Source of the DNA: an uncultured Fimbriimonadaceae bacterium
Lineage (GTDB): Bacteria; Armatimonadota; UBA10988
Direction of reading: 5' to 3'
Length of the DNA stretch: 64,000 nucleotides
NCBI GenBank assembly: GCA_964405335.1
Contig: CAYONP010000009.1
Span: 12,074 to 76,073 of the forward strand
Shown: one piece after another, positions 1,521-49,105 of the stretch
Numbering within the stretch: the stretch's first letter is position 1
Layout: each line of letters begins with the position of its first letter
Notes under the pieces: generated by a model
Seen by the model: the letters and a program-made list of their open reading frames with translations, nothing else
Databases searched by the model: none
Told to the model about the DNA's origin: nothing
Translations under genes and position numbers: made by a program

Positions 1521-1828
1521 TGGCAGTCGGCCGGGTAGCGGTGATTCAGCGGCCCGAGACGCCCGAGCAGCGCAAGCTGTGGGAGCAGTGCTGCGCGGTC
1601 GAGGGCATGTTTCTGCAGCAGATGCTGACCGCCATGCGGCGGACGGCGCCCGACCAGGACGGCCTGTTCGGCGGCGGCGTGGGCCTGAAGATGACCCGCG
1701 ACATGATGGATGAGCAGCTTGCCGAGGTGCTGGCCAAGCGCGGCTCGGCCGGCGTGGCGGGGTTGCTCTACCGCGGCCTGGTGCCGGGCGGGGCGGGCCC
1801 GCCGGCGGGAGACGGCGATGCGGATTGA
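1520..1828 (+). CDS. Rod-binding protein (FlgJ N-terminal domain only, no muramidase domain)
   Basis: ATG at 1520 overlaps the flgI stop (ATGA). 102 aa: MAVGRVAVIQRPETPEQRKLWEQCCAVEGMFLQQMLTAMRRTAPDQDGLFGGG..., typical Rod_binding/FlgJ N-domain. Lies inside the longer spurious ORF 230..1828 (same frame). Confidence 0.7.
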   Translation: MAVGRVAVIQRPETPEQRKLWEQCCAVEGMFLQQMLTAMRRTAPDQDGLFGGGVGLKMTRDMMDEQLAEVLAKRGSAGVAGLLYRGLVPGGAGPPAGDGDAD

Positions 1829-4825: not shown

Positions 4826-5965
4826 ATGGGATGGGAGCCGTTGAAGCCATCGCCCTCCCCGCGCGAGCTGGCCGACCTGATCACCACCGAGCTGGGCCGC
4901 TGTCGCGAGCTGTTGCTCCGCGACGCGGCCGGCCGCCGGCAGCGCCTGTTCGGCCACCTGGTCGGCGCCGGGCGCGCCGTGCTCGAGACCACCGCCGCGC
5001 ACGGCGAGCCGGTCACCCTGACCGCCGCCTGGCTGGTGGTCCACGCCGTGGTCACCCACAACTCCGGCCGGGCCGACCTGGCCGCGCCGCTGGGCCGCCG
5101 GCTGCGCGAGCTGGTGCCCCTGCCCGACGAGCTGGCCGACTATCACCGCGATGAGGTGACCCGGACCTTTGCCGCCTGCCAGCTCGGCCGGGCCGCGATG
5201 ATCCTGCCCTCGCCGCTGGCCGCCGCCGACGGCACCTGGCTCAAGCTCCTGGCCGACCAGCTCAACAGCGCCCTGTGCGACCTGCCGCCAGACCTCTGGC
5301 GCGACCTGGCGCTGTCCGCCCTCCGCCCGCCCCGGCCGCACGGCGGGCTGCTCCTCGTCATCCCGCCCGACGGCGGCGAGCCGTGGGACCTGATGGCCGC
5401 CACGCCACCCGGCGCCGGCGTGATCGACGCCCGCGCCGAGCGACTCACCGAGGCCGAGCTGCTGGCCGAGGTCCACCGCCTGGCGCCTGAACAGGTGGCG
5501 ATCGACCTGCGCCGCGGCGGCGACAGCCTGGCCGACGCCATTGCCGCCCTCGTGCCGTCGGCACGGCTGATTGCCCTCGGCCGCGAGACAGCAGAGCCGC
5601 CGTTTGCCGCGGCGCTCGCCGGCCCGCCGTTCGGCGCCCTGGCCGGCTTGGCCCAACGCAGCGGCGCCGTCCCGCCACTGCCCTACCCCGCCCTGGGCGA
5701 CCTGCGCTCCTGGCCCTTGTCCTGCTATGACGGCGAGGTGATCGTCCCCGTCCGCGGGCGCGGCGGAGCGCAGCTCGCCTGTGACCTGCAAGCCGCCCAC
5801 GCCGCGGCGCCGCCGGCCCGGCTGCGTCTGGCCGCCGGCGCAAGCGATGAGCAGTTGGACGAGCTGGCCGCCGCGATGCCGCTCCCGGCGCCGGTGCAAT
5901 GGTCGACCGTCGACCCGCCGTCGGGCGACCGGGCCGCGCTGCGCCGCGCGGGGTGGAGCGCCTGA
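4826..5965 (+). CDS. Hypothetical protein (379 aa), last gene of the flgK-flgL transcription unit
   Basis: ATG 3 bp after the flgL stop, same strand; opposite-strand alternative (4820..5899) is Arg/Gly-rich frame noise. No recognisable domain. Confidence 0.4.
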   Translation: MGWEPLKPSPSPRELADLITTELGRCRELLLRDAAGRRQRLFGHLVGAGRAVLETTAAHGEPVTLTAAWLVVHAVVTHNSGRADLAAPLGRRLRELVPLPDELADYHRDEVTRTFAACQLGRAAMILPSPLAAADGTWLKLLADQLNSALCDLPPDLWRDLALSALRPPRPHGGLLLVIPPDGGEPWDLMAATPPGAGVIDARAERLTEAELLAEVHRLAPEQVAIDLRRGGDSLADAIAALVPSARLIALGRETAEPPFAAALAGPPFGALAGLAQRSGAVPPLPYPALGDLRSWPLSCYDGEVIVPVRGRGGAQLACDLQAAHAAAPPARLRLAAGASDEQLDELAAAMPLPAPVQWSTVDPPSGDRAALRRAGWSA

Positions 5966-10931: not shown

Positions 10932-13900
10932 TCAGCCTGCAAGCCCGCGGAGGAGGCAGAGTGCTCGCTCGCCGGCCTGGCGGATGGTCCACCCGCGACC
11001 CTGTTCGGACGCGGCTTCGAACGCCTGCTCACCGAGCGTCTCACGCCATTGCGACAACGGCCCGGTGAGCTGCACGTCATGGACCTCGAGGGCCGGCGCG
11101 ACATTGGCGATGCGGTAGGCAGCGGCCGCAGACACGAGCCGGACCGCGTCGGCGGATGCGAGTGCCGGTATCAGGCTGACCCCCTCGATCGTGGCCAGCA
11201 CTCCGAGCTCGAGGTCGTGGCCCAGGGCGCGTTCGAGCACCTTGGCGTAGGCATCCACCGCGGCTGCCGGCCGGCCGCGCTCGCGTTCCAGATGCGCCAG
11301 GGCGACGTCGAGATAGGCCACCTGAAGGGGCTCGCCGGCCAGGTCCATCGCATCTCGTGCCTGGCGGAAGTACCACTCGGCCGGGCCGTAGTCGCCACGG
11401 CGTTGAGCGATCGCCGCCAAGCCGGCTTGATCGCTCGCTATCCGGTATGGCTGCTGGAGGACCTCGGCCAGCGACAAGGCCTGCCGATAGCCCGCCTCGG
11501 CGGCCGGTAGGTCGCCCTGGTGGAAAGCGATGCAGGCGACCATGCGAACGACGTGCTCCTCGAGTACGGGATCGCCTTCGCGCCGTGTGGCCGGCACGGC
11601 CTGAGCGAAGATCCGGCTCGCGGCTTCGAGGTTCTGGCTGCGGCGCAGCCAGTGCGCGATCATCACCAGCGACCAGACCGACGACCGGTCGTCCGCGCTC
11701 CGGCCGAGCTGGTCGAGGGCCTCGGCCTCCAGGTCGTCGGCCTCGGCCAGGCGCCCCTCGAGGCGCGCCAGCGTGCTCAGGCCGAACAGGGCGGTGGCCG
11801 CGGCGTTGCGATCCCCGAGCTCGCGAGCCAGGCCCAGATTCTGTTGCAGCCGGTCGGCGTCGGGCAGGCCCGGCATGGGACCGCCCGGTTGGTGGTCGCG
11901 CGCGAGCTGCAAACCGGCCATGTGCGTCAGCGCCTTCATCTGCTCGTGCCGGTCGCCGGCTTCGGCCCACAGCAGCAGGCTCTGTTCGGCCAGTTGGTAC
12001 GCCTCCAGCAGACGACCCTCAATGGTCGCCGCCACGTAGAGTCGTCCCAGGAAGGCGGCCAGCCGCCGCCGGTCCAATACCTGCTCGGCCGACTTCTGCG
12101 CGAGATGCCAGTGCCGGGCCGCTTCGGCGGCATCCTGATCGGCCGGCGGCAACAGCACCAGCAGATAGTGGGCCATGGCCTCGGCGGCGTGGTCACCCGC
12201 AGCAGTCCCGGCCCGCAGGGCCTCGGCGGCCCAGGTGGCGGCCTGGTCGTGACGGCCCAGCCGAAAGGCCAGCAGGCCGGCCGCCAGGGCCGCGGTCGCC
12301 CGAGCGGCAGTCAGCGTCTGGGCGCCCGGTGCGGCGAGCACAGCCTCCAGTTGTTCCAGGCCCTGGCTCCATCTGGCCTGCTGGTTCCAAAGCGCTCCGA
12401 GGGTGGCGGCCAATCGCAGGCCGTCGTCGGCCTGCTCCGCCCGCGACAGCGCTTCATCCAGGGCCATCTGAAGGTTGGCCTGCTCCTCGGCCAGTCGGCT
12501 AAGCCACACCGCCTCGTCGATCGGCCTGCCCGGCGCACCGTCGCCCAGCGCGGCGGCGAAGCAGGCGACCATCCGCGCCGACGCTCTCGGTCGCTCGCCG
12601 CGCTCGACCAACCGCTCAGCCGCGAACTCGCGGATCGTCTCGAACATCCGGTACCGCGGCTCGTCGCCCGTCAGGTCGAGCTGGAGCAGCGACCAGCCGC
12701 GGAGTAGCTCGAGGTAGTCTCTGGCCGAGGGCTCCTCGCCCACCGCTTCGGCGGCCTCGGCGCCGAAACTGCCGGCGAAGACGGACAGCCGCGCGAGGAA
12801 GGCCTGGAACGGCTCCGACAGCAGTTGGTAGCTCCAGGCGATGGCGGCTTCGAGCGTGCGGTGGCGTTCGGGCCGCCGGTCCGATCGCGCGGCCCGCCAG
12901 TGCAGCCGTTCGTCGAGCCGCTCGGCGAGGCGATGGACGCTCATCGACGGCAGGCGCGCAACCGCCAGCTCGAGCGCCAAGGGGATCCCCTCGAGGCCGG
13001 TGCAGACCGCGACTACCGCCGCCGCATTGCGTTCGCTCAAGACGAAATCAGGCACGGTGGCGCGGGCCCGATCGACGAACAGTTGCACACTCGGAACGCC
13101 GGCCACGGCGGCGATGTCGGCGCGCTCGCTCGGCAGGTCCAGCGGCTCGACCGGCACGGGTCGTTCGCCGGACAGGCCCAGTCTGCGCCGCGAGGTGGCC
13201 AGGCAGAGCAGCGACGGGCAGTCCTCGAGCAGCTTGCCGATGACCAGACCGGCCTCGGGCGTGAACTGCTCGAGGTTGTCCAGGATCAGCAGGCCGGGAT
13301 GCTCGCCAAAGAACCAGCGAAGCTGCTGATCCACGTGGCTCTGGGGTTCCAGGCCGATCCGGCGCAGAATCTCAAAGGTGAGGTCGGCCGCCGTTCGCAG
13401 GTCGGAAGCCTGAACGAACCAGGCCAGAGTGCCGCAGGTCCGCGCCATGTGCCAGCCGACCTCGACCGCCAGCCGTGTCTTGCCGCTGCCGCCCGGGCCG
13501 GTGAGGGTCACCAGGCGCGTGTCGTCGAGCAGCAACTCGGTCACCGCCGCGATCGCCGCCTCACGGCCATACGTTCGGCCCAGCACCGCGGGCAGCGCGG
13601 CGGTCACCGGCCGCTCCAGCGCCAATGGCTGCCCCACCGCGGCGCTGTCGGTGGCGAAGATCCCACAAGCCGCCGCTCCAGACCGGAGCCGGTACTCGCC
13701 CAGGCTAACCAGGCTCAAGTGCCGGCGGGCGCCCTGGCGCAGCAAGGCGGCGGTGGCCTCGGTCACGAGCAGTTGCCCATCCACCGCGGCGCGACGCAGT
13801 TGCTCGACCGATTCGGCTGCGGGACCGTCGAGCCGGAGGCTGACGTCAGCGGTATGGACGGCCAGCGCGAACTCGTTGTCGCGGACCCGCTCAGCGAAGG

Positions 13901-14891
13901 CGAACGCGTCGCCGGCGCGAGCAAAGGCGACCACGATGCCGTCGTCGTCGCGACGCGCCGGCACGGCACCGAATCGTTCGGCCTCGTCGGCAAGGCAGGC
14001 TGGCGCCGCGACGAAGGTCACGGTGCCGGTCAGGTCCGGATCACCGGCGGGCCGAAGGTCGAGCACCGCCAGGTCTTGGCGGGCCTTGTCGGGCTCGCCC
14101 AGCAGGGCCAGCAGCTCGGTGTCGGGTTCCCAGTCGCCGGTTCGGCGGCGCCTGGCGACGAACCCGTCGAGATGCCGACGAGCCGCCGCGCGGTCGTCCA
14201 CGGCCAGCTCGAGCTGCACGAGTCGACGGAGCAGTGGTTCGCAATCCGGCTCGGCCGAGTTGCCCAGGCGGGCCACCCGCAGGGCCTCGCCCGGCCGGCC
14301 GGCGGCGACATGCCACTCCACCAGCGCTTCCACTGCTTCGACGAAGCACTGCCGCAGCCGCGCCTCCTCGCTCAGCACCCACCGTTCGTAGCAGCAGGGC
14401 AGCAGCGGACCGCCATAGACCGACACGACCTGCTCGAATCGCGCTTGGCGCAACTCGTCGGTCGCCCGACCTGCCGCCTGGTAAGCCGCATCGAGCTGCT
14501 GCACGTCGGTCTCGAGCAGCTCATCCCGAACCCAGACCGACCGCCGGTCGGCTAGGACAAGCGTCTCCTTAGCCTGCTCCGGAGGGCAGAGCTGGCGGCG
14601 CAGGACGGATAGAGTGTAGCTCAGTCTGCCGCGCCCGCTGTCGGCTCCGCAACCGGGCCAGAGCAGCTCGATCAGCTCGTCACGTTCGTGCCGGCGGTGC
14701 GGGTGGTAGGTCAGGTAGGCGAGCAGTGAGGCCGCCTTCTGCGTGCGGAAGCGACAGAGCGTGCCGCCGGCATGCCGAACCTCGAGGGAGCCGAGCAGCC
14801 GTACCTGGTAGCCAACCACCTGACCGACCTTCCCCGACGGCGGACCTGCTCGCCCTGCGGAACAGAAGCGATGTGTACACCAGTGTGTCAA
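10932..14891 (-). CDS. SARP/AfsR-like transcriptional regulator: OmpR-type winged-helix DBD + BTAD + cyclase-like segment + NB-ARC P-loop ATPase + TPR repeats
   Basis: N-terminal YQVRLLGSLEVRHAGG...LLAYLTYHPHRRHERDELIELLWPG (SARP DNA-binding), Walker A LTGPGGSGKTRLAVEV, long C-terminal TPR-like helical repeats. True start may be an internal GTG near VGQVVGYQV. Confidence 0.8.
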   Translation of the reverse strand: MTHWCTHRFCSAGRAGPPSGKVGQVVGYQVRLLGSLEVRHAGGTLCRFRTQKAASLLAYLTYHPHRRHERDELIELLWPGCGADSGRGRLSYTLSVLRRQLCPPEQAKETLVLADRRSVWVRDELLETDVQQLDAAYQAAGRATDELRQARFEQVVSVYGGPLLPCCYERWVLSEEARLRQCFVEAVEALVEWHVAAGRPGEALRVARLGNSAEPDCEPLLRRLVQLELAVDDRAAARRHLDGFVARRRRTGDWEPDTELLALLGEPDKARQDLAVLDLRPAGDPDLTGTVTFVAAPACLADEAERFGAVPARRDDDGIVVAFARAGDAFAFAERVRDNEFALAVHTADVSLRLDGPAAESVEQLRRAAVDGQLLVTEATAALLRQGARRHLSLVSLGEYRLRSGAAACGIFATDSAAVGQPLALERPVTAALPAVLGRTYGREAAIAAVTELLLDDTRLVTLTGPGGSGKTRLAVEVGWHMARTCGTLAWFVQASDLRTAADLTFEILRRIGLEPQSHVDQQLRWFFGEHPGLLILDNLEQFTPEAGLVIGKLLEDCPSLLCLATSRRRLGLSGERPVPVEPLDLPSERADIAAVAGVPSVQLFVDRARATVPDFVLSERNAAAVVAVCTGLEGIPLALELAVARLPSMSVHRLAERLDERLHWRAARSDRRPERHRTLEAAIAWSYQLLSEPFQAFLARLSVFAGSFGAEAAEAVGEEPSARDYLELLRGWSLLQLDLTGDEPRYRMFETIREFAAERLVERGERPRASARMVACFAAALGDGAPGRPIDEAVWLSRLAEEQANLQMALDEALSRAEQADDGLRLAATLGALWNQQARWSQGLEQLEAVLAAPGAQTLTAARATAALAAGLLAFRLGRHDQAATWAAEALRAGTAAGDHAAEAMAHYLLVLLPPADQDAAEAARHWHLAQKSAEQVLDRRRLAAFLGRLYVAATIEGRLLEAYQLAEQSLLLWAEAGDRHEQMKALTHMAGLQLARDHQPGGPMPGLPDADRLQQNLGLARELGDRNAAATALFGLSTLARLEGRLAEADDLEAEALDQLGRSADDRSSVWSLVMIAHWLRRSQNLEAASRIFAQAVPATRREGDPVLEEHVVRMVACIAFHQGDLPAAEAGYRQALSLAEVLQQPYRIASDQAGLAAIAQRRGDYGPAEWYFRQARDAMDLAGEPLQVAYLDVALAHLERERGRPAAAVDAYAKVLERALGHDLELGVLATIEGVSLIPALASADAVRLVSAAAAYRIANVAPALEVHDVQLTGPLSQWRETLGEQAFEAASEQGRGWTIRQAGERALCLLRGLAG

Positions 14892-14985
14892 TAACGGCGG
14901 CGCGAGTCAAGTGAACGCAATCCCACCAGAGATTGAATCCAGGCGATTGGGTGGCCAACCGCGCTCAGGTCGAACGGCACGCCCT

Positions 14986-16755: not shown

Positions 16756-17517
16756 TCAGTCGACCGGCGACAGCGTCACAATCGCCCGCCGCGGCAGGCC
16801 CGGGGCCGCGTGCGGGGTATAGGTGGCGCGCACCCGCGTTTCGCCGCCGGCGGCGTTGGTCACCAGGTACTCGGCGTCGACCACCGGCTCCAGGTTGAGC
16901 AGCGAGCAGAGGCCCGGGCAGTCGCCCTTGGTCACCGTCGTGCCGTCGTCGTGGTGGCAGCCGAACAGCTCGCTGCACAGCGGGCCGTGCTGCATCTGCC
17001 GGCTGGTCAGCCCGATGAACTGCTCGGCCGAGGCGTTGCAGGCCAGCACGCGGCGCTGCTCGTCGATCAGAAAGACCGGCGCGGCGGCCTCGAGCAGGTG
17101 CTGCGGCAGCCGGCCCGGCGCCTGCTCACCCGAGAGCACCCGGCGATAGCCGTCAGCAGTCTCGAGCTGCGCCAGCTCGGCGGCATCGGCGAGGGCGATG
17201 CGGGCCAGCCAGCCGTCGCCGAGGGGATCTTCGTTGACCAGGCCCGGCCTCGCCCAGAGGTCCTCGTTGATGGCTGCCACCGCGCCCTGGACCGGCGGAA
17301 AGAGCTGGGTGAGACCGTAGCCCGCCGACTGCAGGCTGCCCAGCGGCAGGCCGAACGTCGCCGGCGCGCCGACGGCCGGCAGACCCACATGAAAGACGCG
17401 CCCGTGCCGCTCTTGACCGTGCTCGGTCAGGCCGACGGTGGCCGTCGTGCCGTCGCAGGCGACCCAGAGGTGGCTGGCGGTGTAACGCCACTCGTCGGGA
17501 AGCGTGTAGTTCGCCAC
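16756..17517 (-). CDS. GcvH-like (lipoyl-fold) domain fused to a Cys-rich PAS-like domain
   Basis: GTG start at 17517 (VANYTLPDEWRYTASHLWVACDGTTATVGLTEHGQ...GDGWLARIAL = glycine-cleavage H fold, but the lipoyl-Lys position reads LQSAGYG, i.e. no Lys), followed by LIDEQRRVLACNASAEQFIGLTSRQMQ...GCHHDDGTTVTKGDCPGLC. Confidence 0.55.
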   Translation of the reverse strand: MANYTLPDEWRYTASHLWVACDGTTATVGLTEHGQERHGRVFHVGLPAVGAPATFGLPLGSLQSAGYGLTQLFPPVQGAVAAINEDLWARPGLVNEDPLGDGWLARIALADAAELAQLETADGYRRVLSGEQAPGRLPQHLLEAAAPVFLIDEQRRVLACNASAEQFIGLTSRQMQHGPLCSELFGCHHDDGTTVTKGDCPGLCSLLNLEPVVDAEYLVTNAAGGETRVRATYTPHAAPGLPRRAIVTLSPVD

Positions 17518-17613
17518 AAAACCCTCCGCGGCCGGAGCAGTGGCGCTCGGCGCCCCGGCACGTCGCCTACCAGTATATGCAACAGACCTGCCCGGCGTCA
17601 CCAAATCGGTTTC

Positions 17614-17679
17614 GGGCGGGCGGCGACGCCCGCGCTCCGGGGCGGGCCGCCGGCGGGCGGCGACGCCCGCGCTCCGGGG
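17614..17679. repeat. Tandem duplicate of GGCGGGCGGCGACGCCCGCGCTCCGGGG (17614-17642, 17652-17679), same family as the 16461/16687 elements
   Basis: Seen in sequence between the flhB stop (17692) and the GcvH-PAS start (17517). Confidence 0.55.
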
Positions 17680-17691
17680 CGCGCGACTCGC

Positions 17692-21180: not shown

Positions 21181-21495
21181 CTATCTTTGCCCGGCGCGGC
21201 GCGGCCGGTTCGGCCGCCGGTCGGCTTTCTTCGCGTGCTGGCCGGCAATCTCGGTCACCCGCACGGCGAACGCGTCGTCCTGCACGACCACCTCGCCGAG
21301 GGCGATGATCCGCCCGCGGCAGCGCAGCTCGACCGGCTCGCCGGCGAGGCGGTCGAGGGTGACCACCGATCCGGGCCCAAGCCGCTCGACCTCGCGAAAG
21401 CGCATCGTCGTGCGGCCGAGTTCGACCTGCACGCTCAGGCGCACCCGCTCCAGTCGGCGCAGCTCGGTCAGCGGCTCTGCCGGCGCGGCGCTCAT
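21181..21495 (-). CDS. Second FliN-domain (SpoA) protein, 104 aa
   Basis: ATG complement 21493-21495 overlaps the upstream fliN stop (ATGA). VQVELGRTTMRFREVERLGPGSVVTLDRLAGEPVELRCRGRIIALGEVVVQDDAFAVRVTEI is a FliN/SpoA C-terminal domain. Confidence 0.6.
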   Translation of the reverse strand: MSAAPAEPLTELRRLERVRLSVQVELGRTTMRFREVERLGPGSVVTLDRLAGEPVELRCRGRIIALGEVVVQDDAFAVRVTEIAGQHAKKADRRPNRPRRAGQR

Positions 21496-22106
21496 GCCGT
21501 CGCTCCCAGGGCGGTGATGCGGATGCCGAAACTGTCGTCGACCACGACCACCTCGCCCCGCGCGATGCACTTGTCGTTGATGAACAACTCGACCGGCTCG
21601 CCGGCCAGCTTGTCCAGCTCGACCAGCGAGCCGGGGTGCATCTTGAGAATGTCCTCGATGGTCATCTCGGTGCGGCCGATTTCGGCCGAGACCTGCAGCA
21701 TCACGTCGGCCAGCAAGTCGTGATCGCCGACCCGGTCGTGCTCCTTGTGTGTCGCGCCGAAGGCGCCGCCGGCCGCCGCGGCGAGGCTGCCGGTCGCCTG
21801 GCCGGTGGTGTCGGTGTAGGTCTCGGCGGCATCGAGCGCGTCGGCCAGCAGCGCGCTGATGGCGTCCTGGCCGAGCAGCTCGCGGCCCTCGCCCGTGGCG
21901 GTCGGCGCGGCCGTGCCGATGGGCTCGGTGCTCAGCTCCTCGAGCGGCTCTTCGTTGGCCACCGGCTCGTCGGCCGGCTCGTCGGCCGGCTCGTCGGCCG
22001 GCTCCGGCTCGTCGCTGCCGGCGCCGGCCAGCAGCTCGGCCAGCTCGTCGGGGCTGACCTGCTCGTCGGCGGCCGGGCTGTCGGTCTGGTTCGTCTCATC
22101 GGACAT
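21492..22106 (-). CDS. fliN: Flagellar motor switch protein FliN (acidic low-complexity N-terminus + SpoA domain)
   Basis: MSDETNQ... (PADEPADEPADEP), then VMLQVSAEIGRTEMTIEDILKMHPGSLVELDKLAGEPVELFINDKCIARGEVVVVDDSFGIRITAL. Alternative GTG start at 22118. Confidence 0.75.
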   Translation of the reverse strand: MSDETNQTDSPAADEQVSPDELAELLAGAGSDEPEPADEPADEPADEPVANEEPLEELSTEPIGTAAPTATGEGRELLGQDAISALLADALDAAETYTDTTGQATGSLAAAAGGAFGATHKEHDRVGDHDLLADVMLQVSAEIGRTEMTIEDILKMHPGSLVELDKLAGEPVELFINDKCIARGEVVVVDDSFGIRITALGATA

Positions 22107-22118
22107 GGTTGCGCCCAC

Positions 22119-22757
22119 CTATTGCATCACAAACTCGCGCAGATAGATCGCGGTCATCGGTACCGGCGAGGTGCCACCGGCGGCATCGTCGACAATCGCG
22201 GCGAAGCGCTCGAGCAGCACCGTCTTGAGCCCCTCCTTGCCCGCGGCCGCCTGCAGCTCGGCAAACTCGCGCGAGCTGACCTCGAGCAGCAGCGAGTCCT
22301 GCATCCGCGTCTGGACATCGGCGCTGAGGAGCAGCCGGATGAGGGCCAGCACCGCCTCGCTCGGCCCCTCGCGCGGGGGCAGCTTGGCGTCGGCCGGCGG
22401 TGGATCCGGCTCCGGCGGCACGTCGGGGTCGATCTTGGCCATGGTCAACCGGAAGTGGTGCGCGTCGAGGGGATCGAGCTCGAACCCAATCGCCACCTGG
22501 CAGCGGATGTAGCGGTCGCCCTCGGCCAGGTTGACCGTCAGGGGAGCCAGCGGGTAGACCACCGTTTCGAGCACCGGATCGGCATCCCAGGCGGCCTGCG
22601 CGTCGGCCTGCTGCCGGGCCTTGTTCTGCTGCCAGAGAAAGCCCGCCGCGCCCAGCGCGGCCAGCGCGACGACTCCGAGCAGCAGGATCATGCCCTTGCC
22701 GCGCTTCCTCTTCGGCTCGGCGCCCTCGGTTCCCTGGGCGGCCTCTGCTTCGGCCAT
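22119..22757 (-). CDS. fliL: Flagellar basal-body-associated protein FliL
   Basis: 212 aa, single N-terminal TM, LAPLTVNLAEGDRYIRCQVAIGFE FliL block. Confidence 0.8.
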   Translation of the reverse strand: MAEAEAAQGTEGAEPKRKRGKGMILLLGVVALAALGAAGFLWQQNKARQQADAQAAWDADPVLETVVYPLAPLTVNLAEGDRYIRCQVAIGFELDPLDAHHFRLTMAKIDPDVPPEPDPPPADAKLPPREGPSEAVLALIRLLLSADVQTRMQDSLLLEVSSREFAELQAAAGKEGLKTVLLERFAAIVDDAAGGTSPVPMTAIYLREFVMQ

Positions 22758-22769: not shown

Positions 22770-23531
22770 TCAGGCCGCGCGGGCCAGCAAGCCCATCGCC
22801 CGGTGGACCTGCAGCCGCTCGGCCACCAAGCGCGGGTGCAGGCGTTGCTGCAGCAGCACCAGGCCATCGATCCAAAGCTCCCGCTCGGCCGCGCGCAGGC
22901 GCAGCGCCCGCCGGCGGAGCAGCATCTGCGGCGCGCAGACCAACTGCGCCAGCGCCACGCCATAGCCGGTGGCCAGCAGCGCGCCGGCCAACGCCGGCGC
23001 CATCGCCTCGGGCGGGCCCAGCAGCGACTGCACCATGCCGGCCAGGGTCAGAATCACCCCGCCGTTGACCGCGCCCTCGGCCAGCCGCTGCCAGCCCTCG
23101 GTCGGCTGGCGGTCGAGCGCCTCGAGCTCGGCCGCGGCCTGGCGCAGCGCCGCCTCCAACGCCGTCGGCTCGACCTCGGCGCTGAGCAACCGAAGCGCCA
23201 GCCCTTCGAGTAGACCGCCCGCGGCACTGGACTGCTGGGCGAGCCAGCGCTCGCCGTGGCTCCGGTAGCCGCGCGACAACTCGATCAGGCGGGCCGCGGC
23301 GGCCTCGATATCGGCCTCGGCCGGGCGGTCGAAGATGCGCCGTACCGCTGACAGGGGCTGGCAGCAGAACAGGTATCCGACCGCCGACAGCACCACCGCC
23401 GCCAGCGCCACGGGATGCCACAGTCCGGCCGGCCGGCCGGCCAGTCCGGAGCCGACCGCGAGAGCCGCTACCGCGATGAGGTAACCCGCCGCGGTGAGCG
23501 ATCGCTGCAGAGCTCGCGTTGGTCTTGGCAT
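22770..23531 (-). CDS. motA: MotA/PomA-like stator proton-channel protein
   Basis: Start ATG at 23531 (in frame with track ORF 22770..23684). Four TM segments; TM3/TM4 region GGVILTLAGMVQSLLGPPEAMAPALAGALLATGYGVALAQLVCAP with the conserved prolines of the MotA/ExbB/TolQ family. Confidence 0.65.
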   Translation of the reverse strand: MPRPTRALQRSLTAAGYLIAVAALAVGSGLAGRPAGLWHPVALAAVVLSAVGYLFCCQPLSAVRRIFDRPAEADIEAAAARLIELSRGYRSHGERWLAQQSSAAGGLLEGLALRLLSAEVEPTALEAALRQAAAELEALDRQPTEGWQRLAEGAVNGGVILTLAGMVQSLLGPPEAMAPALAGALLATGYGVALAQLVCAPQMLLRRRALRLRAAERELWIDGLVLLQQRLHPRLVAERLQVHRAMGLLARAA

Positions 23532-23535
23532 CGAT

Positions 23536-24513
23536 CTAGATCTCGTCGCGTTCGGCCCGAAACTTAGCCCGGCAGAGCATGACCAGCAGGTAGCCGGCGA
23601 CCATCGCCTCGAGCGGCCGGCGCACCGGCAGCGCCGGCGGCCGGCCCGCGCCGCCGGGGGCGTCGGCCCGGATGAGCAGCCCACGCGGCCGCCACTCGCG
23701 CACGCCGCGCACCGCGTCGAGTCGTGGCTTCAGGCGGTCGGCCTCGCGCGCCAGGTGGTCGACCAGCCGCTCGAGCGACCGCGCCTGAGGTTCGCCGTCA
23801 TCGCCGCCGACCTCATACAGCAACGCCACCGCACGGTGCCGCGCGGCGAAGTAGCGGTGGCACAGGCTGGTCGCATAGCCGGCCGGGGTGCGGGTCAGGC
23901 GGATCGGCTGACCGACCCGCTGCTCGCCGGCGACGATGCCGCGGGCCAGCGACTCGGCCAGGCCGTCGAGCGCCCGGTCGCCGGTCGGGTACCACTCGAT
24001 CCAGTCCGCCTCGCGCGGGCCGGCGCGGCGCATGCCGAACTGGTGCAGGTCGATCACGAGGTGCGGCTGCCAGGCGTCGAAAACCCGCATCACCGCCCGG
24101 TTCTCGGCTTGATCGCGAAGCAGCCACGAGCGGTTGAGGTCGACTCCGCGGCTGTTGGCCCGCCGCCCACGCGCGGCGCCGTCAGGGTTGACCGTGGGCA
24201 TCAGCAGCACCGCGACGCGGTCGAACGGCGCGTTGCGGCCGGCGGCGCTCTCCATCCAGCGCACCGCGGCGCGTGCCGGCGCCGGCTCGTCACCATGCTG
24301 CTGGGCCAGGACCAGCACTCGGATCTGCTCCTCGGGCGCACCCGGCCGCATGGTCGCAATCAGCAGCGGGAGGTCACGTCCCTCGGTGCTGGTGCCCGCC
24401 GACTGCGCAAACAGGTGTGGCGCCGCGGCCGACCAACGCGCGACGGCGGCGGCCACGTCGGCCGGCGCGCCGGCGACGGGCAGGGACAGCAGGCCGGCAA
24501 GCAGCCACCTCAC
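23536..24513 (-). CDS. Secreted M14-family zinc carboxypeptidase-like protein (peptidoglycan peptidase type)
   Basis: Signal peptide MRWLLAGLLSLPVAGAPA; zinc-binding QHGDEPA (HxxE), VNPDGAARG, LNRSW, VIDLHQFG (second His). Sits between flbD and motA, where motB is normally found. Confidence 0.7.
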   Translation of the reverse strand: MRWLLAGLLSLPVAGAPADVAAAVARWSAAAPHLFAQSAGTSTEGRDLPLLIATMRPGAPEEQIRVLVLAQQHGDEPAPARAAVRWMESAAGRNAPFDRVAVLLMPTVNPDGAARGRRANSRGVDLNRSWLLRDQAENRAVMRVFDAWQPHLVIDLHQFGMRRAGPREADWIEWYPTGDRALDGLAESLARGIVAGEQRVGQPIRLTRTPAGYATSLCHRYFAARHRAVALLYEVGGDDGEPQARSLERLVDHLAREADRLKPRLDAVRGVREWRPRGLLIRADAPGGAGRPPALPVRRPLEAMVAGYLLVMLCRAKFRAERDEI

Positions 24514-24731
24514 CGCGCGGTCTCCGCCTCGACGATCGGCCGGAAGGCGACCCGGCGCTGGTACTCGACGACCTTGTCGACCACCGTCTCGACCGGGTCG
24601 TCGACCAGGTAGAGCTTGCCGGTGTGGAGCCGGATGACGGTGTCGGGCGTCGCCTCGATGGTCTCGATCAGGGCGGCGTTGAGCACGAAGCTCGAGCCGT
24701 CGAGCCGGCGCAGTCGGATCATGGCAGTCAC
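24510..24731 (-). CDS. flbD: Flagellar protein FlbD
   Basis: 73 aa: MIRLRRLDGSSFVLNAALIETIEATPDTVIRLHTGKLYLVDDPVETVVDKV, a close match to FlbD. Confidence 0.8.
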   Translation of the reverse strand: MTAMIRLRRLDGSSFVLNAALIETIEATPDTVIRLHTGKLYLVDDPVETVVDKVVEYQRRVAFRPIVEAETAR

Positions 24732-24772: not shown

Positions 24773-26014
24773 TTACCGCTTCAGGTTCAGCGCTTCCTGC
24801 AGGATCTCGTCCGCGGTGGTGACCAGCCGCGCCGAGGCCTGATAGCCGCGCTGGAAGACGATCATCTGGGTCAGCTCGCTGGGCAGGTCGACGTTCGACC
24901 GCTCGAGCGACTGCGACTGGATCGTGCCCACCCCGGCGGTGCCGGGGGTCAGGAGCTGCGCCAGGCCGGTGTTGGCCGTCGGCTTGAACAGGTTGCCGAC
25001 GGTGCGCGCCAGGCCCTGCACGTTGGCGAAGTTGGCCAGGCTGAGCTGCGCCACGGGGCGGGTCAGACCATTGCTGAACATCGCCGTGATGTGGCCCTGG
25101 TCGTCGGTGCCGATGTCGATCAGAAAGCCCGGCTCGAAGCCGTCCTGGTTGGTCGCCTCGAGTTCCGAGCCGGCGCCGTACTGGGTCAGCCGCGCCATAT
25201 CGATGCTGATCGCCTGCGGGTCGGTGCCGCCGGCGGTCACCCCGCCGTTGGCCACCGTCACCGTCGCCGTGCCGGTGCCGCCGCTGGCCACGTCGCCCTC
25301 GGCGGTGAAGGTCAACGTGCCCGAACCGACGTTGTTGGCACCGACCTGCGCGACCCAGCTCCACTCGCGCGGATTGGCCGTCTTGGTGTAGGTCAGGTCC
25401 ATCTGGTGCGGCACGCCGAAGCTGTCGTAGTAACGGTACTGCATCTCGGCGATGTCGCCGGTCGCCGCCGCCGCGTCGAGGTTGCCCGCCATGGTCACCT
25501 CGCCGGTCGCCTTGGCGTTGAGCGTCAAGCCGGGCGGGATGACGATGTCCTCGGGCACCGCGCCGGCCGGCACGGTGCCGGTGCCGATGTCGAACAGCAG
25601 GCCCTGCACCTTCAGCCCGCTGGCGGCGTGGACCATGGTCCCGTCCGACTGCAGCGTGAACGCACCGTCGCGCGTGTAGGCCGCCTCGCCCATGCCGTCT
25701 TTGAGCTGGAAGAAGCCGTTGCCCATGATCGCCAGGTCGAGGTTCTGACCCGTGTAGGTCAGCGTGCCCTGCTGGAACTGCGTGGTGTTGGTGGCCAACT
25801 GCACGCCGGCGCCGGCCTGCACCGGGTTGAGGCCGGTGACGCCGTCCGACACACCCCGCGCGGCGCGCAGGGTTTGACTGAACAACGTCGCGAACCCGGG
25901 CCGGCTCGATTTGAAGCCGGACGTGTTCAGGTTCGCGATGTTGTTGCCCGTGATGTCGATTCCGCTGGCGTGCGCCGCCATGCCGGAAATCGCGGTACTG
26001 AGCAGACGACTCAT
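24773..26014 (-). CDS. flgE: Flagellar hook protein FlgE
   Basis: 413 aa; N-terminal LSTAISGMAAHASGIDITGNNIANLNTSGFK and C-terminal flagellar rod/hook consensus LSNVDLPSELTQMIVFQRGYQASARLV. Confidence 0.9.
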   Translation of the reverse strand: MSRLLSTAISGMAAHASGIDITGNNIANLNTSGFKSSRPGFATLFSQTLRAARGVSDGVTGLNPVQAGAGVQLATNTTQFQQGTLTYTGQNLDLAIMGNGFFQLKDGMGEAAYTRDGAFTLQSDGTMVHAASGLKVQGLLFDIGTGTVPAGAVPEDIVIPPGLTLNAKATGEVTMAGNLDAAAATGDIAEMQYRYYDSFGVPHQMDLTYTKTANPREWSWVAQVGANNVGSGTLTFTAEGDVASGGTGTATVTVANGGVTAGGTDPQAISIDMARLTQYGAGSELEATNQDGFEPGFLIDIGTDDQGHITAMFSNGLTRPVAQLSLANFANVQGLARTVGNLFKPTANTGLAQLLTPGTAGVGTIQSQSLERSNVDLPSELTQMIVFQRGYQASARLVTTADEILQEALNLKR

Positions 26015-26897: not shown

Positions 26898-28517
26898 CTA
26901 CGCCCAGAGCAGCAAGCCGTCGTCGGGCGACGACCGCTGCATGGTCGGGCCGACCGGCTCGAGCGGCGTCGGCTCCGCCGGCGCCTCGCGCTGCGGCCGG
27001 CCGCCCGGCCAGCTATCCGGCCAGGGCGATTGCTGCCCGCCGCGAGCGCCGACGTCGAGGCTTTCCAGCGCCAGGCCGTGCCCGCCCAGCGCTTCGCGTA
27101 GCGCCGGCAACTGCTCCTGCAGCTCGCGCCGCAGGCCCTCGTGCTGCGTGCCGACCAGCACCTGCACCGTGTCGGCCGTGCGCACCACCCGCACCGCCAC
27201 CTCGCCCGCCTCGGGGTGCTGCAGCGAAACGGTGAAGCTGTCCTGGCCCGGCGAGCGGACCAGCCTCGCTCGGTCGACGATCAGCTCGCGCAGCGAGCCG
27301 ACGTCGTGCATCGCGATCGGCCGGGACGGCTCGCCGCCCTCGGTCGCCGCGGCGGTGCCCAGGCTGAACGTCGCCGGCGCCGCCTCGGGCCGCGGCTCGG
27401 CCGGCCGCACCGGTGCGGTCGGCGGCTCGTGCCGCTCGCCGCCCTGTTGCGCCGAACCCTCCGGCGTCGGCGCCTCGACCGGCCGGGCCGCCGGTGCGTC
27501 GGCCGGGGTGAGCACCTGCGCCGGCCGCTCGCGCGGCGCGGCCGGTTCGAGCGGTGGCGCGGCGCGCAGCGGATCGACCGCCTCGCGGCGCGAAACCGGC
27601 GGTGCCGGCTCGGCCGGCGGCTCGATCACCGTTTCGGCCGTCTCGCGCAGCGTCGTGGTCAGGGTCTCGACCAACGCGTCGGGATCGAGCGGCGGCAGTG
27701 GCCCGAGCGGCTCGACAGCCTGCGTGCCGCGCACGGTCACGCCGCCGTTGGCGGCCGCCTGGGCCGGTGAGATCGGCGGCGGCGGGCTGGGCTCGGGCAG
27801 CGGTGGAAGCTGGGGCTCCGTCACGTCCGGCTCGTGGCGCAGCGCGGCGGCGAACTGGGCCGCCCGCTCGGTCACCTTCGGCACATAGGCCTGGGTCTCG
27901 GCGAACGGCGGCACGCCGCCATGCTGCTCGACGGCGCCGGGCCCGGCGTTGTAGGCGGCGACCGCGCGGCGCACGTCGCCGCCGAAGCGGTCGAGCATCT
28001 GGCGCAGGTAACGCGTGCCGGCGTCGATGTTCTGCGCCGGGTCGAAGGCGTTGCTGACGCCCAGCTCGGCCGCCGTGCCGGGCATTAGCTGCATCAAGCC
28101 CTGCGCCCCGGCGGGCGAGACGGCCTGCGGGTTGAAGCTCGATTCGCTCTGCATCACCGCCAGGATGAGCGCCTCATCGACGCCGTGGCGGCGGCCGGCC
28201 TCGCGGACCAGGCGCTGGGTTTCGGCCGGCACGTCGGCCAGCGCGCCGGCGCCGGTGAGCACCGCTCGCGCCAGGTCGGCCGCGGGCCGGTTGGCGCCGC
28301 TCGAGTCCTCGGGCAGCAAGGCGCGCAGGTCGGGCAGCGCCAGCTCGGCGCCGGCGGTCAGTCCGCCGGTGGCCAGGCGGGCCTGCAGGATTTGGTTGAA
28401 CGCCTCGGCCGGTGTCGTCGGCGGGGCGGTGGGGGCCACTTCCGGGGTCAGTCGGTCCAGCAGCCCTTCGATCTGCCTCAGTCGGCCGACCAGGCCGCTG
28501 AGGTGCTCCAAGTTCAT
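26898..28517 (-). CDS. Fusion protein: lytic transglycosylase (SLT) domain + FliK hook-length control C-terminal domain
   Basis: 539 aa single ORF. SLT motifs [32 protein letters not shown]...AYNAGPGAV; Pro/Ala-rich linker; C-terminal Flg_hook-type domain [64 protein letters not shown]. Located at the fliK position (fliJ-X-flgD). Confidence 0.8.
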
Positions 28518-28894
28518 GGGTCACTCCCCTTTCGGGAGTAGCTGATCACAGCCCTTTCGTCGTTCTCGGCCTGTTCGTACCACTCCAGTCGGGCGAGGTG
28601 CTCGCGCCGGCGCTGCTCGCGCAACCGCTCGAGGCTCCGGCGATCGCGCCGCGCGGCCAAATAGTCGGCCTGCCGGCGCTCGACCTCACGTTCTGTTTCG
28701 GCCAGCTCGGCGGCCTGCTTTAGCTCGAGCAGCTCCAGCCGACGCAGCTCGCGCCAGGCGGCGGCGATCAGCTCGCTGTCGAGCTCGGCCAGCTCGCGCC
28801 GCAGGCGCTCCAGCTCGGCGCGCAGCCGCGCCTGGGTGGCGCGCAGGGCCGCCTCGGCCGCGTCGCGCAGCGCAATCGCCTCGGCCAAGGCCAA
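28514..28894 (-). CDS. fliJ: Flagellar export protein FliJ (N-terminus probably extends upstream to about 28999 via a non-canonical start)
   Basis: Coiled-coil protein; the in-frame upstream sequence ...[34 protein letters not shown] is FliJ-like but contains no ATG/GTG before the in-frame stop at 29003-29005; the track start is a TTG. Confidence 0.6.
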
Positions 28895-38800: not shown

Positions 38801-40132
38801 ATGCGCCGATTTGCATGTCTGTTGTTCGCCGGCTGGCTGGGCCTGGCGCCCACCGGCGCGGCCGTGCCGAAGCTCAGCTACAACCCGTCGCACGGCGAGA
38901 TGCTGCGCTTTCTGGTCGAAGCGAACCGCGAGACCCGCTTCGTCACCACCGTCGCCGCCGCCGGGCGGTCGGTCCGCGGGCGGCAGATTCCGGTGGTCAT
39001 CTGCCAGGACCCGACGGTCGACCCGCTGAACATGACCCGGCTGCTGATCATGGCGCGGCAGCACGGCAACGAGCCGGCGGGGACGATTGCCCTGCTCGAG
39101 CTGATCCGCGACCTGGCCGCCGGGCAGGCCGGACCGCTCGAAATGCAACTTCAGCGCGTCTGCCTGTTGCTGGTGCCGATGGTCAACCCCGACGGCGCCG
39201 ACGCCAACACGCGCCGGAACGCCAACAACATCGACCTGAACCGGGACTGGAACAGCCGCACGCAGCCCGAATCGCAGGCGATGGAGTACCTCCACAACCT
39301 GTGGACTCCGCACGCCGTGCTCGATCTGCACGAGCTCTGGTTCAACGACGCGCACGGGATCAACACCATCGAGGCGCCCGGCGGTGGAGCGCGGGTGCCG
39401 GCCGAGGTCGCCGCCGAATGCCGGCGACTGCAGCAGTACATCCTCACCCGCCTGCAGCAGGCCGGGTTCCCCGTCCGCCCGAGTTTCTGGGACGGCGGCA
39501 ACGATGGCTCGCTGGCGCACCGCCACTTCTCACGCGACCACGGCCGCATGGCGCTGCTGTTCGAGAGTGAGCGTCAGGGCTTCCGCACGCCGCTGCCGCG
39601 CCGGGCGCAGATGCACCGCATCGGCGTGCAGACGGTGATCGACTATTACTACAGCGGAGGCTTCGGCCCGCGCGACAGCGAGGCGGCTCTGGTGCCCTCG
39701 CCCGGCGGCGGTGAAGCGCTGCCGCCGCCGTCGCTCGACGGGTCGCCGACGCCGCCCGGCGGGGCGAATGCGGCCGCCGCGCCGGCGCGGCCGCTCGGAC
39801 CCGAGCCCGAACCCACGCCGACTCGGCCGCAGATCCGGTTCATCACGCCCGAGGTGACGCAGGAGGTGCATGGGACGGTGATGCTCGAGCTCGCGCTCAG
39901 CGGCATCGACGACCTCGAAACGCTGTCGGTCTTTGTCGACGGGCAGGGCCGGTACTTCAGCAATCGGCCGCCGTTCCGGTTCGCCTGGGACACCAGCGAC
40001 CTATCGCCCGGCCGGCACGTGGTCCTGGTCCGCGCGCGGCGGCGCAGCGGCGAGACGGTCGAACGCGAGCAGCTCTTCAGCGTCGCCCGCGGCCGGCCCG
40101 ATACGGTGACCGAGAGCGACGAGGAAGAGTGA
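38801..40132 (+). CDS. Secreted M14-family zinc carboxypeptidase-like protein with C-terminal Ig-like domain (paralog of 23536..24513)
   Basis: Signal peptide; MARQHGNEPAG (HxxE), VNPDGADANTRRNANNIDLNRDWN, LDLHELW; C-terminal beta-rich domain. Confidence 0.75.
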   Translation: MRRFACLLFAGWLGLAPTGAAVPKLSYNPSHGEMLRFLVEANRETRFVTTVAAAGRSVRGRQIPVVICQDPTVDPLNMTRLLIMARQHGNEPAGTIALLELIRDLAAGQAGPLEMQLQRVCLLLVPMVNPDGADANTRRNANNIDLNRDWNSRTQPESQAMEYLHNLWTPHAVLDLHELWFNDAHGINTIEAPGGGARVPAEVAAECRRLQQYILTRLQQAGFPVRPSFWDGGNDGSLAHRHFSRDHGRMALLFESERQGFRTPLPRRAQMHRIGVQTVIDYYYSGGFGPRDSEAALVPSPGGGEALPPPSLDGSPTPPGGANAAAAPARPLGPEPEPTPTRPQIRFITPEVTQEVHGTVMLELALSGIDDLETLSVFVDGQGRYFSNRPPFRFAWDTSDLSPGRHVVLVRARRRSGETVEREQLFSVARGRPDTVTESDEEE

Positions 40133-41202
40133 ACCTCTGGGTCGAGGTCGACCCCACCGCGCTCGAGGCCAACGCCCGCGCCGTGACCGAGCTGCTCGGC
40201 AGCACGTCGCTCTGCGCCGTGGTCAAGGCCAACGGCTACGGCCACGGCGCCGTCATCGCCGCCCGCGCCTTCCTCGCCGCCGGCGCCGAGCGGCTGGCGG
40301 TGAGCAGCGTCGACGAGGCGGTCGAACTCCGCGCCGCCGGCCTCGACGGAACCATCCTGCTGCTCGCCTCGCACGCGCCGGACGAGGCCGAGGCGGTCGT
40401 CGAACACCGGCTGACCGCCACGATCAGCGAGCTCGGCGCGGCCGAGCGGCTCTCCCGCGCAGCGGGCGATCAGACGGTGCCGATTCACCTGCTGGTCGAC
40501 TGCGGCATGGGCCGCGACGGCTGCCTGCCCAGCGAGTCGCCGGCCCTCGCCGAGGCCGCCGCGGCGCTGCCGGGCCTCACGATCGAGGGCGTCTACACCC
40601 ACTTCCCGACCGCGCTGGCGCGCGACAAGTCGGCCACGCGCCGGCAACTGGGGCTGTTCCTGGAAACCGTTACCCGGCTCCCCACCAGGCCACCGCTGGT
40701 CCATGCGGCCAACTCGGCGGCGGCGGTCGACCTGCCCGAGTCGCGGCTCGACCTCGCCCGCATCGGGACGCTGCTCTATGGCCAGTACCCGAGCCGCTGG
40801 GTGACCCGCGCCGTCGAGCTGCGCTCCGCCTGGCGGCTGTGCGCCCGGCTGGTCGAGGTGCGGACCCTGCCGGCCGGGGCGAGCATCGGCTACGGCAGCG
40901 AGCACCGCCTGCGCCGCGCGACGCGGGTCGGCACGCTGCCGGTCGGTTGGGCTCACGGTTTCACGTTGCAGCCGGCCAGCCTCCACCGCGGCCTGCGCGG
41001 CCTGGCCCACGCGCTACGGCCCGAGCCGGCGGCGGTGACGCTGCACGGTCGGCGCTGCCCGGTGCTCGGCCGCGTGGCGATGCAGAGCTGCGCGGTCGAC
41101 CTGACGGCCGCGCCGGAGGCGCAGGTGGGCGACGTCGCCGAGGTCCCGGCGCGGCGGGTGACGGTGCCGCCGAACGTGGCGCGGGTGGAGGTCAGGTCGT
41201 GA
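40129..41202 (+). CDS. alr: Alanine racemase
   Basis: PLP-lysine motif AVVKANGYGHGAV near the N-terminus, 357 aa; GTG start overlapping the upstream stop. Confidence 0.85.
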   Translation: MNLWVEVDPTALEANARAVTELLGSTSLCAVVKANGYGHGAVIAARAFLAAGAERLAVSSVDEAVELRAAGLDGTILLLASHAPDEAEAVVEHRLTATISELGAAERLSRAAGDQTVPIHLLVDCGMGRDGCLPSESPALAEAAAALPGLTIEGVYTHFPTALARDKSATRRQLGLFLETVTRLPTRPPLVHAANSAAAVDLPESRLDLARIGTLLYGQYPSRWVTRAVELRSAWRLCARLVEVRTLPAGASIGYGSEHRLRRATRVGTLPVGWAHGFTLQPASLHRGLRGLAHALRPEPAAVTLHGRRCPVLGRVAMQSCAVDLTAAPEAQVGDVAEVPARRVTVPPNVARVEVRS

Positions 41203-46233: not shown

Positions 46234-46390
46234 CGCTGCCTCCCTCGCCGCCGCCCAGGTCTCCGCATTGACGGTAGTATCGCCGGACGAGCCGCCTTCT
46301 TGACCCCGCCACTCACCTACATTATGCCGTGCCGCGGCGGACGCGTCGCGTAACGGGCGTCGATCACCCGGCTGCAAATCAGGTGCCGCC

Positions 46391-47497: not shown

Positions 47498-47605
47498 GCG
47501 GCGATGATGCCCGCCGGCACGGCGGCGGTCAAGCGGGCGGTCCGCGGGATCGACGACCGCGACAGCTAGAGCGTGCAAGCGCACGCCGACCAGCCCAAAT
47601 GGTAG

Positions 47606-48556: not shown

Positions 48557-48557
48557 C

Positions 48558-48983: not shown

Positions 48984-49105
48984 CCCGGCCGCACCACCGC
49001 CGGCATCCTGCCCAACGGCGCGCGCACCGGCTACACTTACGGTCCCGGCAGCGTCCTGGCCGTGCTGGAGGTGCTTCGGCAGGTGCTGGAATCGGGAGAC
49101 ACGCC

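Follow-up and report, generated by a model that had tools for sequence, protein, structure and literature searches.

What does a zinc carboxypeptidase do directly in front of motA in a flagellar operon, and where is the motB that such a motA would need? The question is raised by a stretch of 64,000 nucleotides (the window) from an uncultured bacterium of the Fimbriimonadaceae (Armatimonadota; UBA10988), positions 12,074 to 76,073 of contig CAYONP010000009.1 in assembly GCA_964405335.1, with a G+C content of about 70%. On its minus strand a gene for an M14 zinc carboxypeptidase of 325 amino acids (aa) (23536..24513; Pfam PF00246) lies between flbD, which encodes a protein of the SwrD family, and a divergent motA without an adjacent motB. 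The initial annotation had suggested local remodelling of peptidoglycan at the stator or basal body, and this is retained here as the best reading on the grounds of synteny, the tethered build of the protein and relatives linked to the alanine racemase gene (alr) and FemAB. In the form that we favour, to which we give about an even chance, the protein would be a flagellum-dedicated peptidoglycan peptidase that is tethered at the stator and trims stem peptides around the motor, with motB encoded elsewhere in the genome.

The operon runs in the order fliJ, a fusion of an SLT lytic transglycosylase with FliK, flgD together with a Flagellar_put gene, flgE, flbD, the M14 gene, the motA-like gene and fliL (all on the minus strand). 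Open reading frames (ORFs) and Pfam matches confirm the part from flgE to fliL as originally described. The M14 gene does not, however, fill the motB slot, as had been stated. It is placed upstream of motA, whereas the canonical position of motB is the gap between motA and fliL, as in the order fliJ-fliK-flgD-flgE-flbD-motA-motB-fliL of C. difficile (PMC10889297). The reported overlap of 4 bp with flbD (24510..24731; Pfam FlbD, E 5.4e-25) is real: the GTG start of the M14 gene shares the letters GTGA with the TGA stop of flbD. Its own stop, TAG, is followed after 4 nucleotides by the ATG of motA (22770..23531) at 23531, and motA in turn by fliL (22119..22757; Pfam FliL, E 3.7e-11). No terminator-like site was found between the flbD, M14 and motA genes. 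Judged by this layout, the M14 gene is embedded in the stator part of the flagellar operon and translationally coupled to it. Since the immediate neighbours are FlbD/SwrD, MotA and FliL, the gene belongs to the stator sub-module rather than to the rod genes. Loss of FlbD/SwrD impairs torque generation, MotA is a predicted interactor of SwrD, and FliL is treated in published abstracts as a protein of motor or stator function.

The same arrangement is found in other genomes. A word-indexed homolog search returned only four close homologs; when 1.84 billion representative proteins were searched exhaustively with HMMER, only 8 clusters matched over the full length of the profile at E < 1e-70, and after these the matches fell off steeply. 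Wherever the neighbourhood of a full-length homolog could be read, it proved to be a flagellar operon in which the homolog is directly followed by a motA-like gene. M14 followed by motA was seen in 10 separate lineages (the window together with L002; L001; L003; L004; L058; L143; L144; L145; L141/L142; L146), and on an eleventh, short contig (L138) flbD and M14 run up to the contig end. All lineages with the pair that can be named are Armatimonadota: L001 is a UBA10988 metagenome-assembled genome (MAG) from ENA, L003 and L004 are groundwater MAGs named 'Armatimonadetes bacterium', and L144, a contig of 209 kb, comes from a 'Fimbriimonadaceae bacterium'. The close flagellar M14 orthologs are 43-52% identical to each other, with lower values for the most distant; L141/L142 and L146 are the more distant flagellar orthologs. 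The overlap of flbD and M14 by 4 bp recurs in L001, L144 and L145, and that of M14 and motA measures 4 bp in L143 and 13 bp in L144. In L141/L142 both flbD and fliL are missing and the order flgE-M14-motA-fliN is kept. The pair thus persists without these neighbours, so that M14-motA is a stable unit. The arrangement is not due to chance, and the M14 gene is a fixed member of a stator sub-module flbD-M14-motA-fliL in a small clade of Armatimonadota. Around the more distant M14 genes no flagellar genes were found in about 125 loci, and no paper was found that links an M14 enzyme to a stator or a flagellar operon. In L142 the spacer between M14 and motA (1351..1470) contains a long near-perfect palindrome of GGGATGA repeats, possibly a terminator or a repeat element that folds into a hairpin.

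This conservation bears on the simplest explanation, that a housekeeping wall-recycling peptidase was inserted into the ancestral operon and rides there as a passenger without a flagellar role. Such an origin would agree with the presence of a non-flagellar paralog in the same genome (38801..40132, plus strand; a signal peptide followed by M14 and Big_7, both matched by Pfam, without a membrane tail; 36% identity over 205 aa) and with relatives of the same architecture in non-flagellar contexts. Yet a passenger would hardly keep its place before motA in 10 lineages, even where the neighbouring flbD and fliL are gone, nor be translationally coupled on both sides. In addition, the flagellar copies carry a clade-specific invariant motif, and a housekeeping copy is kept separately beside alr. 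We regard the passenger explanation as highly improbable.

Is the product an active enzyme? The motifs QHGDEPA, NPDG and DLHQFG, noted earlier as those of a secreted M14 protein, are present behind a signal peptide, and the match to Pfam Peptidase_M14 is well above threshold (43.9 bits versus a cut-off of 21.6, E 2.9e-11; 38.8 bits for the L004 ortholog). NCBI names the relatives only 'DUF2817 domain-containing protein'. An AlphaFold2 model was built from a 45-sequence alignment and has a mean predicted local distance difference test score (pLDDT) of 87; the mixed-profile homolog search was dominated by M14 proteins of about 530 aa of the Gemmatimonadota type and was used only to deepen this alignment. 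The catalytic domain comprises aa 20-270 (23704..24456, minus strand; block-mean pLDDT mostly 92-98, falling to 72 and 83 in places) and ends in a clade-specific helix, LKPRLDxxRGxxxW, in which the motif KPRLD..RG..W is invariant in six close orthologs.

The zinc ligands H73-G-D-E76 and H157 (DLHQF) as well as N127-R128 (DLNR) and E234 (YEVG, strand 229-235) are invariant both in ten orthologs and in 45 diverse M14 sequences. R118 is invariant in the ten orthologs and in smaller alignments, but is not among the residues invariant in the 45 sequences. From position and invariance, with no residue-level superposition, R118 and N127-R128 are presumed to bind the substrate and E234 to be the general base corresponding to Glu270 of carboxypeptidase A. 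As all catalytic residues (H73, E76, R118, N127, R128, H157 and E234) are invariant in the ten orthologs, the enzyme is under selection to stay active. Judged by its intact active-site residues, the product is predicted to be a catalytically competent periplasmic M14 zinc carboxypeptidase.

The nearest relatives of this enzyme are not those first proposed. Foldseek ranked the bacterial CCP-like structures 4b6z (E 8.5e-15) and 4a37 highest, with template-modelling scores of about 0.6; carboxypeptidases T, A and B came after them. The ortholog profile gave a similar ranking of solved structures, with 4a37, 3k2k and 4b6z in front (best E 3.5e-13) and MpaA next (1.6e-9). Csd4 of H. pylori and Pgp1, which the initial annotation had named as M14 peptidases that affect motility, are related at the clan level only: the match of the profile to Csd4 (4wcm) was not significant (E 0.91), and since the model moreover has one globular domain instead of three, assignment to this type was rejected. 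Nor does the protein belong to the MpaA family proper. It scored 38.7 bits against the MpaA equivalog model NF007897 of NCBIfam, far under the cut-off of 157, and only residues 57-144 were aligned.

The gene neighbourhoods of the non-flagellar relatives are informative with respect to the substrate. The paralog lies beside alr, as had been described, and its stop overlaps the GTG start of alr (40129..41202, plus strand; Pfam Ala_racemase_N and Ala_racemase_C) by 4 bp. In another lineage a non-flagellar relative with the architecture of the flagellar protein, P0135, follows directly on FemAB and alr. Because these relatives stand beside alr and FemAB, cell-wall peptides are the likely substrate; MpaA, a murein-peptide amidase, is also among the nearest characterised relatives. 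In L140 (3549..7128; JGI Ga0137716_10000274) an M14 gene adjoins alanine racemase and FemAB. The alr-linked tethered or secreted M14 genes suggest an uncharacterised family of wall-peptide carboxypeptidases. There are precedents for wall enzymes that act on the motor and not on flagellar assembly: in H. pylori the peptidoglycan maturation enzymes MltD and AmiA are needed for MotB-dependent rotation, not for assembly (Roure 2012, as cited in PMC3961634), and B. subtilis CwlQ is needed for swarming, not for assembly.

Alternatively, the enzyme could process protein and not the wall. A flagellar protein of the periplasm, such as MotB, FliL or FlgI or an exported component of the rod or hook, would then be trimmed at its C-terminus, as a step of maturation or turnover. 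CCPs are protein-C-terminal carboxypeptidases, and CCP-like M14 enzymes are the closest solved relatives; M14 enzymes in general are protein or peptide carboxypeptidases, and the gene is grouped with flagellar structural genes, with which it is probably co-expressed. The repeated linkage of relatives to alr and FemAB, which points to wall peptides with D-amino acids, and the similarity to MpaA argue the other way. Furthermore, the N-terminal beta-sandwich of CCPs is absent: the model is single-domain, and the matches in the PDB span the catalytic part of the CCPs only. Nor did any potential substrate stand out by a conserved extension at its C-terminus. Processing of a flagellar protein therefore appears doubtful, and wall peptides remain the substrate that we prefer.

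How would such an enzyme be held at the motor? The protein starts with a Sec-type signal peptide (about aa 1-16, MRWLLAGLLSLPVAGA; 24466..24513, minus strand), whose cleavage is predicted from the sequence; all orthologs have a hydrophobic N-terminus followed by A-x-A or APEP. Behind the catalytic domain follows a proline-rich disordered stalk (aa 271-299; 23617..23703, minus strand), defined by the model and the ortholog alignment. It is without secondary structure, with block-mean pLDDT values of 54-56 over aa 281-300, falling below 50 only at 286-288, and it measures about 25-45 aa across the orthologs. The C-terminus is formed by a hydrophobic helix (aa 300-319 in the model), the basic RAKFR and an acidic ERDEI tail (23539..23616, minus strand). 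This tripartite tail of 12-16 apolar residues, a basic patch (R/K-x-K/R) and a short acidic end is common to 10/10 orthologs, and in the more distant relatives P0133-P0135 the C-terminal segment, about 20-24 aa long, is clearly transmembrane. The simplest reading is that the helix is a putative type-I inner-membrane anchor (N-terminus out, C-terminus in) and that the extended stalk could span the distance from the inner membrane to the wall.

The possibility of a PEP-CTERM-like sorting signal was considered and rejected, as no model matched and the tail runs 5-10 residues beyond the basic cluster. With the NCBIfam models for PEP-CTERM, MYXO-CTERM, GlyGly-CTERM and other C-terminal sorting signals (six tails, E <= 10), no such signal was found in the tails of the flagellar clade. 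Four were without any match, and P0132 gave only a chance match to the TspB C-terminal model (E 0.057); the tail of the non-flagellar P0133 matched MYXO-CTERM at chance level (E 1.7). An exosortase gene is present in the window (42980..44668).

The partner gene motA encodes a protein of 253 aa; the identical protein has been called elsewhere as P0010. It exceeds the cut-off of Pfam MotA_ExbB (26.8 versus 22.9 bits), and its profile matches the solved structures 6ysf, 8ucs, 9lu9 and PomA over positions 5-235 approximately (E 7e-19), i. e. with full-length homology to MotA/PomA. The best NCBIfam motA score, on the other hand, is 52.8 against an equivalog cut-off of 237. A word-based search with MotA retrieved near-identical sequences only. 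MotA proteins of the close orthologs are 31-37% identical to each other. A cytoplasmic motif RxxG..LE, whose Glu we take to be the FliG contact in studied motors, is kept in most of the orthologs; the copy in the window has Ala at the position of the Glu, and P0011, which is 89% identical to it, has Glu. Among the close orthologs no conserved acidic residue was found in the transmembrane segments of MotA. The position aligned with the 'AP' of PomA/MotA is V, L or F in them, and the Pro of transmembrane segment 4 is not conserved. The distant MotA of L142 keeps both prolines. Two of the motA-like genes are unusual in length: in that of L003 (4041..4619) the cytoplasmic domain is shorter by about 50 residues, and that of L142 (1489..2190) begins at the second transmembrane segment and has three segments, like ExbB/TolQ.

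The initial annotation found no motB in the operon, and there is none in the rest of the window. Pfam gave no OmpA/MotB match in the approximately 45 ORFs covering the window, and none in about 20 kb around three other loci (the flanks of L004 and the Pfam annotation of L001 and L144). A six-frame regular-expression search for the OmpA-like core (N..LS..RA..V) plus a MotB-type transmembrane motif was negative in the window and in nine orthologous loci, and on reading the small operon proteins (FlbD, Flagellar_put, FliL, FliO) no MotB-type transmembrane helix with an Asp was seen. In none of the 10 lineages does motB adjoin motA. However, motA and motB need not be linked. In the fla1 cluster of Phaeobacter inhibens (Rhodobacterales) motB heads a motB-flgE-K-L-I operon with motA a dozen genes away, and both are required for motility (PMC12363192). 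For other MAGs of the Armatimonadota, genes for both a MotA and a MotB have been reported (PMC10290634). As neither MotA nor the helix of the M14 protein has a protonatable residue, a B subunit bearing the Asp and encoded elsewhere is the economical expectation. We thus assume that the motB partner of this motA most likely lies elsewhere in the genome.

Could the M14 protein itself be the missing partner? As a MotB in the strict sense it was rejected: its topology is reversed, and it has no OmpA-like domain, no plug and no conserved acidic residue in the helix. A wider possibility, a stator without a canonical MotB, had been raised in the initial annotation. Here the M14 protein would act as the periplasmic counterpart of an orphan MotA, with its helix in or on the MotA pentamer and its M14 domain gripping stem peptides. 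The two would then form one machine, in which the peptidase serves as wall anchor or is a client positioned or energised by the motor, like TonB/TolA on ExbB/TolQ. The constant place of M14 directly upstream of motA, often with overlapping stop and start, in 10 lineages without a motB beside motA would fit this, as would the negative OmpA/MotB searches in the window and around the three other loci. The build can also be read as MotB in reverse: a globular wall-binding domain, a long stalk, a single helix and a short cytoplasmic tail. The helix is short and has recurrent Gly/Ala and aromatic positions, and the MotA proteins of the close orthologs lack the residues of the Pro173/Pro222 type that line the MotB channel.

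Against one common machine stands the topology, as a signal peptide plus C-terminal anchor orients the protein oppositely to MotB. Without an Asp or a conserved protonatable residue in the helix or in the MotA transmembrane segments there is no evident ion path, and the full set of catalytic residues, which is retained, is not needed in a mere anchor. The motA of the most distant ortholog keeps the canonical prolines and the motif RREG..LE, which implies an ordinary MotB partner there. The non-flagellar relatives share the tethered build, so the tail did not arise as an adaptation to the stator, and unlinked motA and motB genes are documented in P. inhibens, as described above. Taken together, we consider a MotA-M14 machine rather improbable. 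If it did exist, it would be a motor of the 5:2 type with an active peptidase as its periplasmic arm.

We therefore return to the peptidoglycan peptidase tethered at the stator. For this reading we infer membrane tethering, a peptidoglycan substrate, action at the stator and a motB elsewhere, and the following sequence of events can be proposed. The M14 protein would be made together and in step with MotA, their genes being overlapping or adjacent, and would be exported by its Sec signal peptide. It would then be retained in the inner membrane through the C-terminal helix, oriented N-out and C-in, and on the proline-rich stalk of 25-45 residues the catalytic domain could extend as far as the peptidoglycan. 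There it would remove C-terminal residues, either meso-diaminopimelate (mDAP) or D-Ala, from stem peptides around the motor. This peptide trimming would complement the glycan-cutting SLT domain on FliK, encoded in the same operon. In this way a niche in the wall could be opened or maintained, for the stator units especially and perhaps also for the rod and P ring.

Several points weigh against this reading. Tight coupling of M14 and motA across lineages is the kind of linkage usual for subunits of one complex. The MotA proteins of the close orthologs are without equivalents of E. coli MotA Pro173 (transmembrane segment 3) and Pro222 (transmembrane segment 4), a hint that the partner of this motA may be unusual, and a motB elsewhere is an assumption. 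The 12-16 apolar residues in the close orthologs are short for a lipid-exposed transmembrane helix, and with its recurrent small/aromatic pattern the C-terminal helix could pack into a protein complex, e. g. the MotA ring, rather than merely anchor the enzyme. Peptidoglycan, finally, is arrived at as the substrate indirectly. The best neighbours in sequence and structure, the bacterial CCP-like M14 enzymes, are functionally uncharacterised, the match to MpaA is far below the family cut-off (38.7 versus 157 bits), and Csd4 is not detectably similar.

The remaining genes of the operon show that the M14 enzyme would not be the only wall-cutting activity there. fliJ (28514..28894) is followed by the SLT-FliK fusion (26898..28517; Pfam SLT, E 2.2e-33, aa 103-201; Flg_hook, E 8.6e-12, aa 421-497), and flgE, the hook gene upstream of M14 and flbD, occupies 24773..26014 (an ORF in the window, annotated Flg_bb_rod/FlgE_D2 in orthologous loci; all on the minus strand). 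At the left end of the window are flgH, flgI, an flgJ with the rod-binding domain only (about 1517..1828, plus strand), flgM, flgK and flgL. The presence of flgH and flgI means that the organism has an outer membrane with L and P rings. With FlgJ reduced to its rod-binding domain and SLT fused to FliK, the operon already carries a wall-cutting function; the activity that FlgJ supplies in enteric bacteria seems, from these domain assignments, to have moved onto the ruler protein FliK, which is exported by the type III system. The fusion is conserved across the clade and was also found in L001 (4579..7317) and L144 (5000..7480).

Downstream of fliL, two genes with a FliN domain are followed by fliO, fliP, fliQ, fliR and flhB, again on the minus strand. 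The first of the two stands at the usual position of fliM (21492..22118) and encodes a protein of 208 aa with only a FliN (FliMN_C) domain, behind an acidic low-complexity N-terminus with EIDAL-like motifs; the second, small FliN gene is next to it (about 21181..21495). The middle domain of FliM was not found in the window, L001 or L144. The gene directly after flhB (16756..17691, minus strand) encodes an unusual protein in which a glycine-cleavage H-protein domain is fused to PAS, and near the operon lies a 1324-aa NTPase of the STAND type (AAA/NACHT plus TPR; 10932..14906, minus strand). An ORF of 379 aa without a Pfam match (4826..5965, plus strand) directly follows flgL at the end of the flgH-flgL cluster and is possibly an unrecognised flagellar gene. 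Farther away, at 42980..47749 (minus strand), the exosortase gene, whose product is EpsH fused to DUF3485, is grouped with genes for a large TPR protein and a GT4 glycosyltransferase, in what looks like a PEP-CTERM/exopolysaccharide sorting cluster. The region from about 48000 to 56000 has a G+C content of 0.64-0.68, versus about 0.70-0.72 as typical of the window (0.68-0.77 overall), and holds a PT-HINT (pretoxin Hint) protein (e. g. 49778..51022, plus strand) and several ORFs without a Pfam match; horizontal transfer of a polymorphic-toxin island may be its origin.

Flagellar motors cross and grip the cell wall, and it is the anchoring of the stator to peptidoglycan that permits torque. The known flagellum-dedicated wall enzymes cut glycan; a peptide-trimming metallopeptidase wired to motA would, if the proposal is true, be a new way to prepare the wall niche of the stator, and it predicts altered stem peptides at the motor. 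The clade is in addition a natural test of the uncoupling of motA from motB. Should complete genomes turn out to be without motB, it would provide the first case of a stator whose periplasmic arm bears an enzyme and is not of the OmpA type. Even the ordinary reading gives the 'DUF2817' proteins a functional context and points to tethered M14 wall peptidases linked to alr.

How does the M14 protein compare with known systems? The muramidase domain of FlgJ, SltF, PleA and B. subtilis CwlQ are likewise wall-cutting enzymes that are encoded or regulated with flagellar genes and act locally, and CwlQ affects motor performance rather than assembly. These enzymes cut the glycan strand, some of them after passing the flagellar type III channel, whereas the M14 protein is a tethered metallo-carboxypeptidase exported by Sec, for which peptide stems are the predicted substrate; unlike them, it is linked specifically to motA. 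Fold and catalytic residues are shared with MpaA, with gamma-D-Glu-mDAP peptidase I (M14 subfamily C) and with the CCP-like structures 4a37, 4b6z and 3k2k. In contrast to MpaA and the CCP-like enzymes, the M14 protein is periplasmic, has a C-terminal helix as tether and a flagellar context, and is without the N-terminal domain of CCPs. Csd4 of H. pylori and Pgp1 of C. jejuni are DL-carboxypeptidases of the M14 clan, loss of which lowers motility (PMC3961634). Csd4 has a three-domain build, the M14 protein a single domain, and the similarity does not go beyond the clan. Csd4 and Pgp1 are, moreover, cell-shape enzymes, and we know of no flagellar operon that encodes them.

Like MotB/PomB, the M14 protein is encoded next to motA and coupled to it, and its one helix is connected through a long linker with a globular domain in the periplasm that could reach the wall. 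MotB/PomB, however, is encoded after motA and has the transmembrane Asp, a plug and an OmpA-like domain, whereas the M14 gene comes before motA and its product has the reversed order and topology and lacks all three. Like MotX/MotY, MotC/MotE/MotK/MotF, PflA/PflB and FliL, which support stator function as far as abstracts describe them, it is a clade-restricted periplasmic or membrane protein encoded with stator genes. The same abstracts present these accessories as structural or regulatory, while the M14 protein keeps a complete active site. We rate the M14 gene as a variant of the flagellum-dedicated wall enzymes or of the lineage-specific stator accessories.

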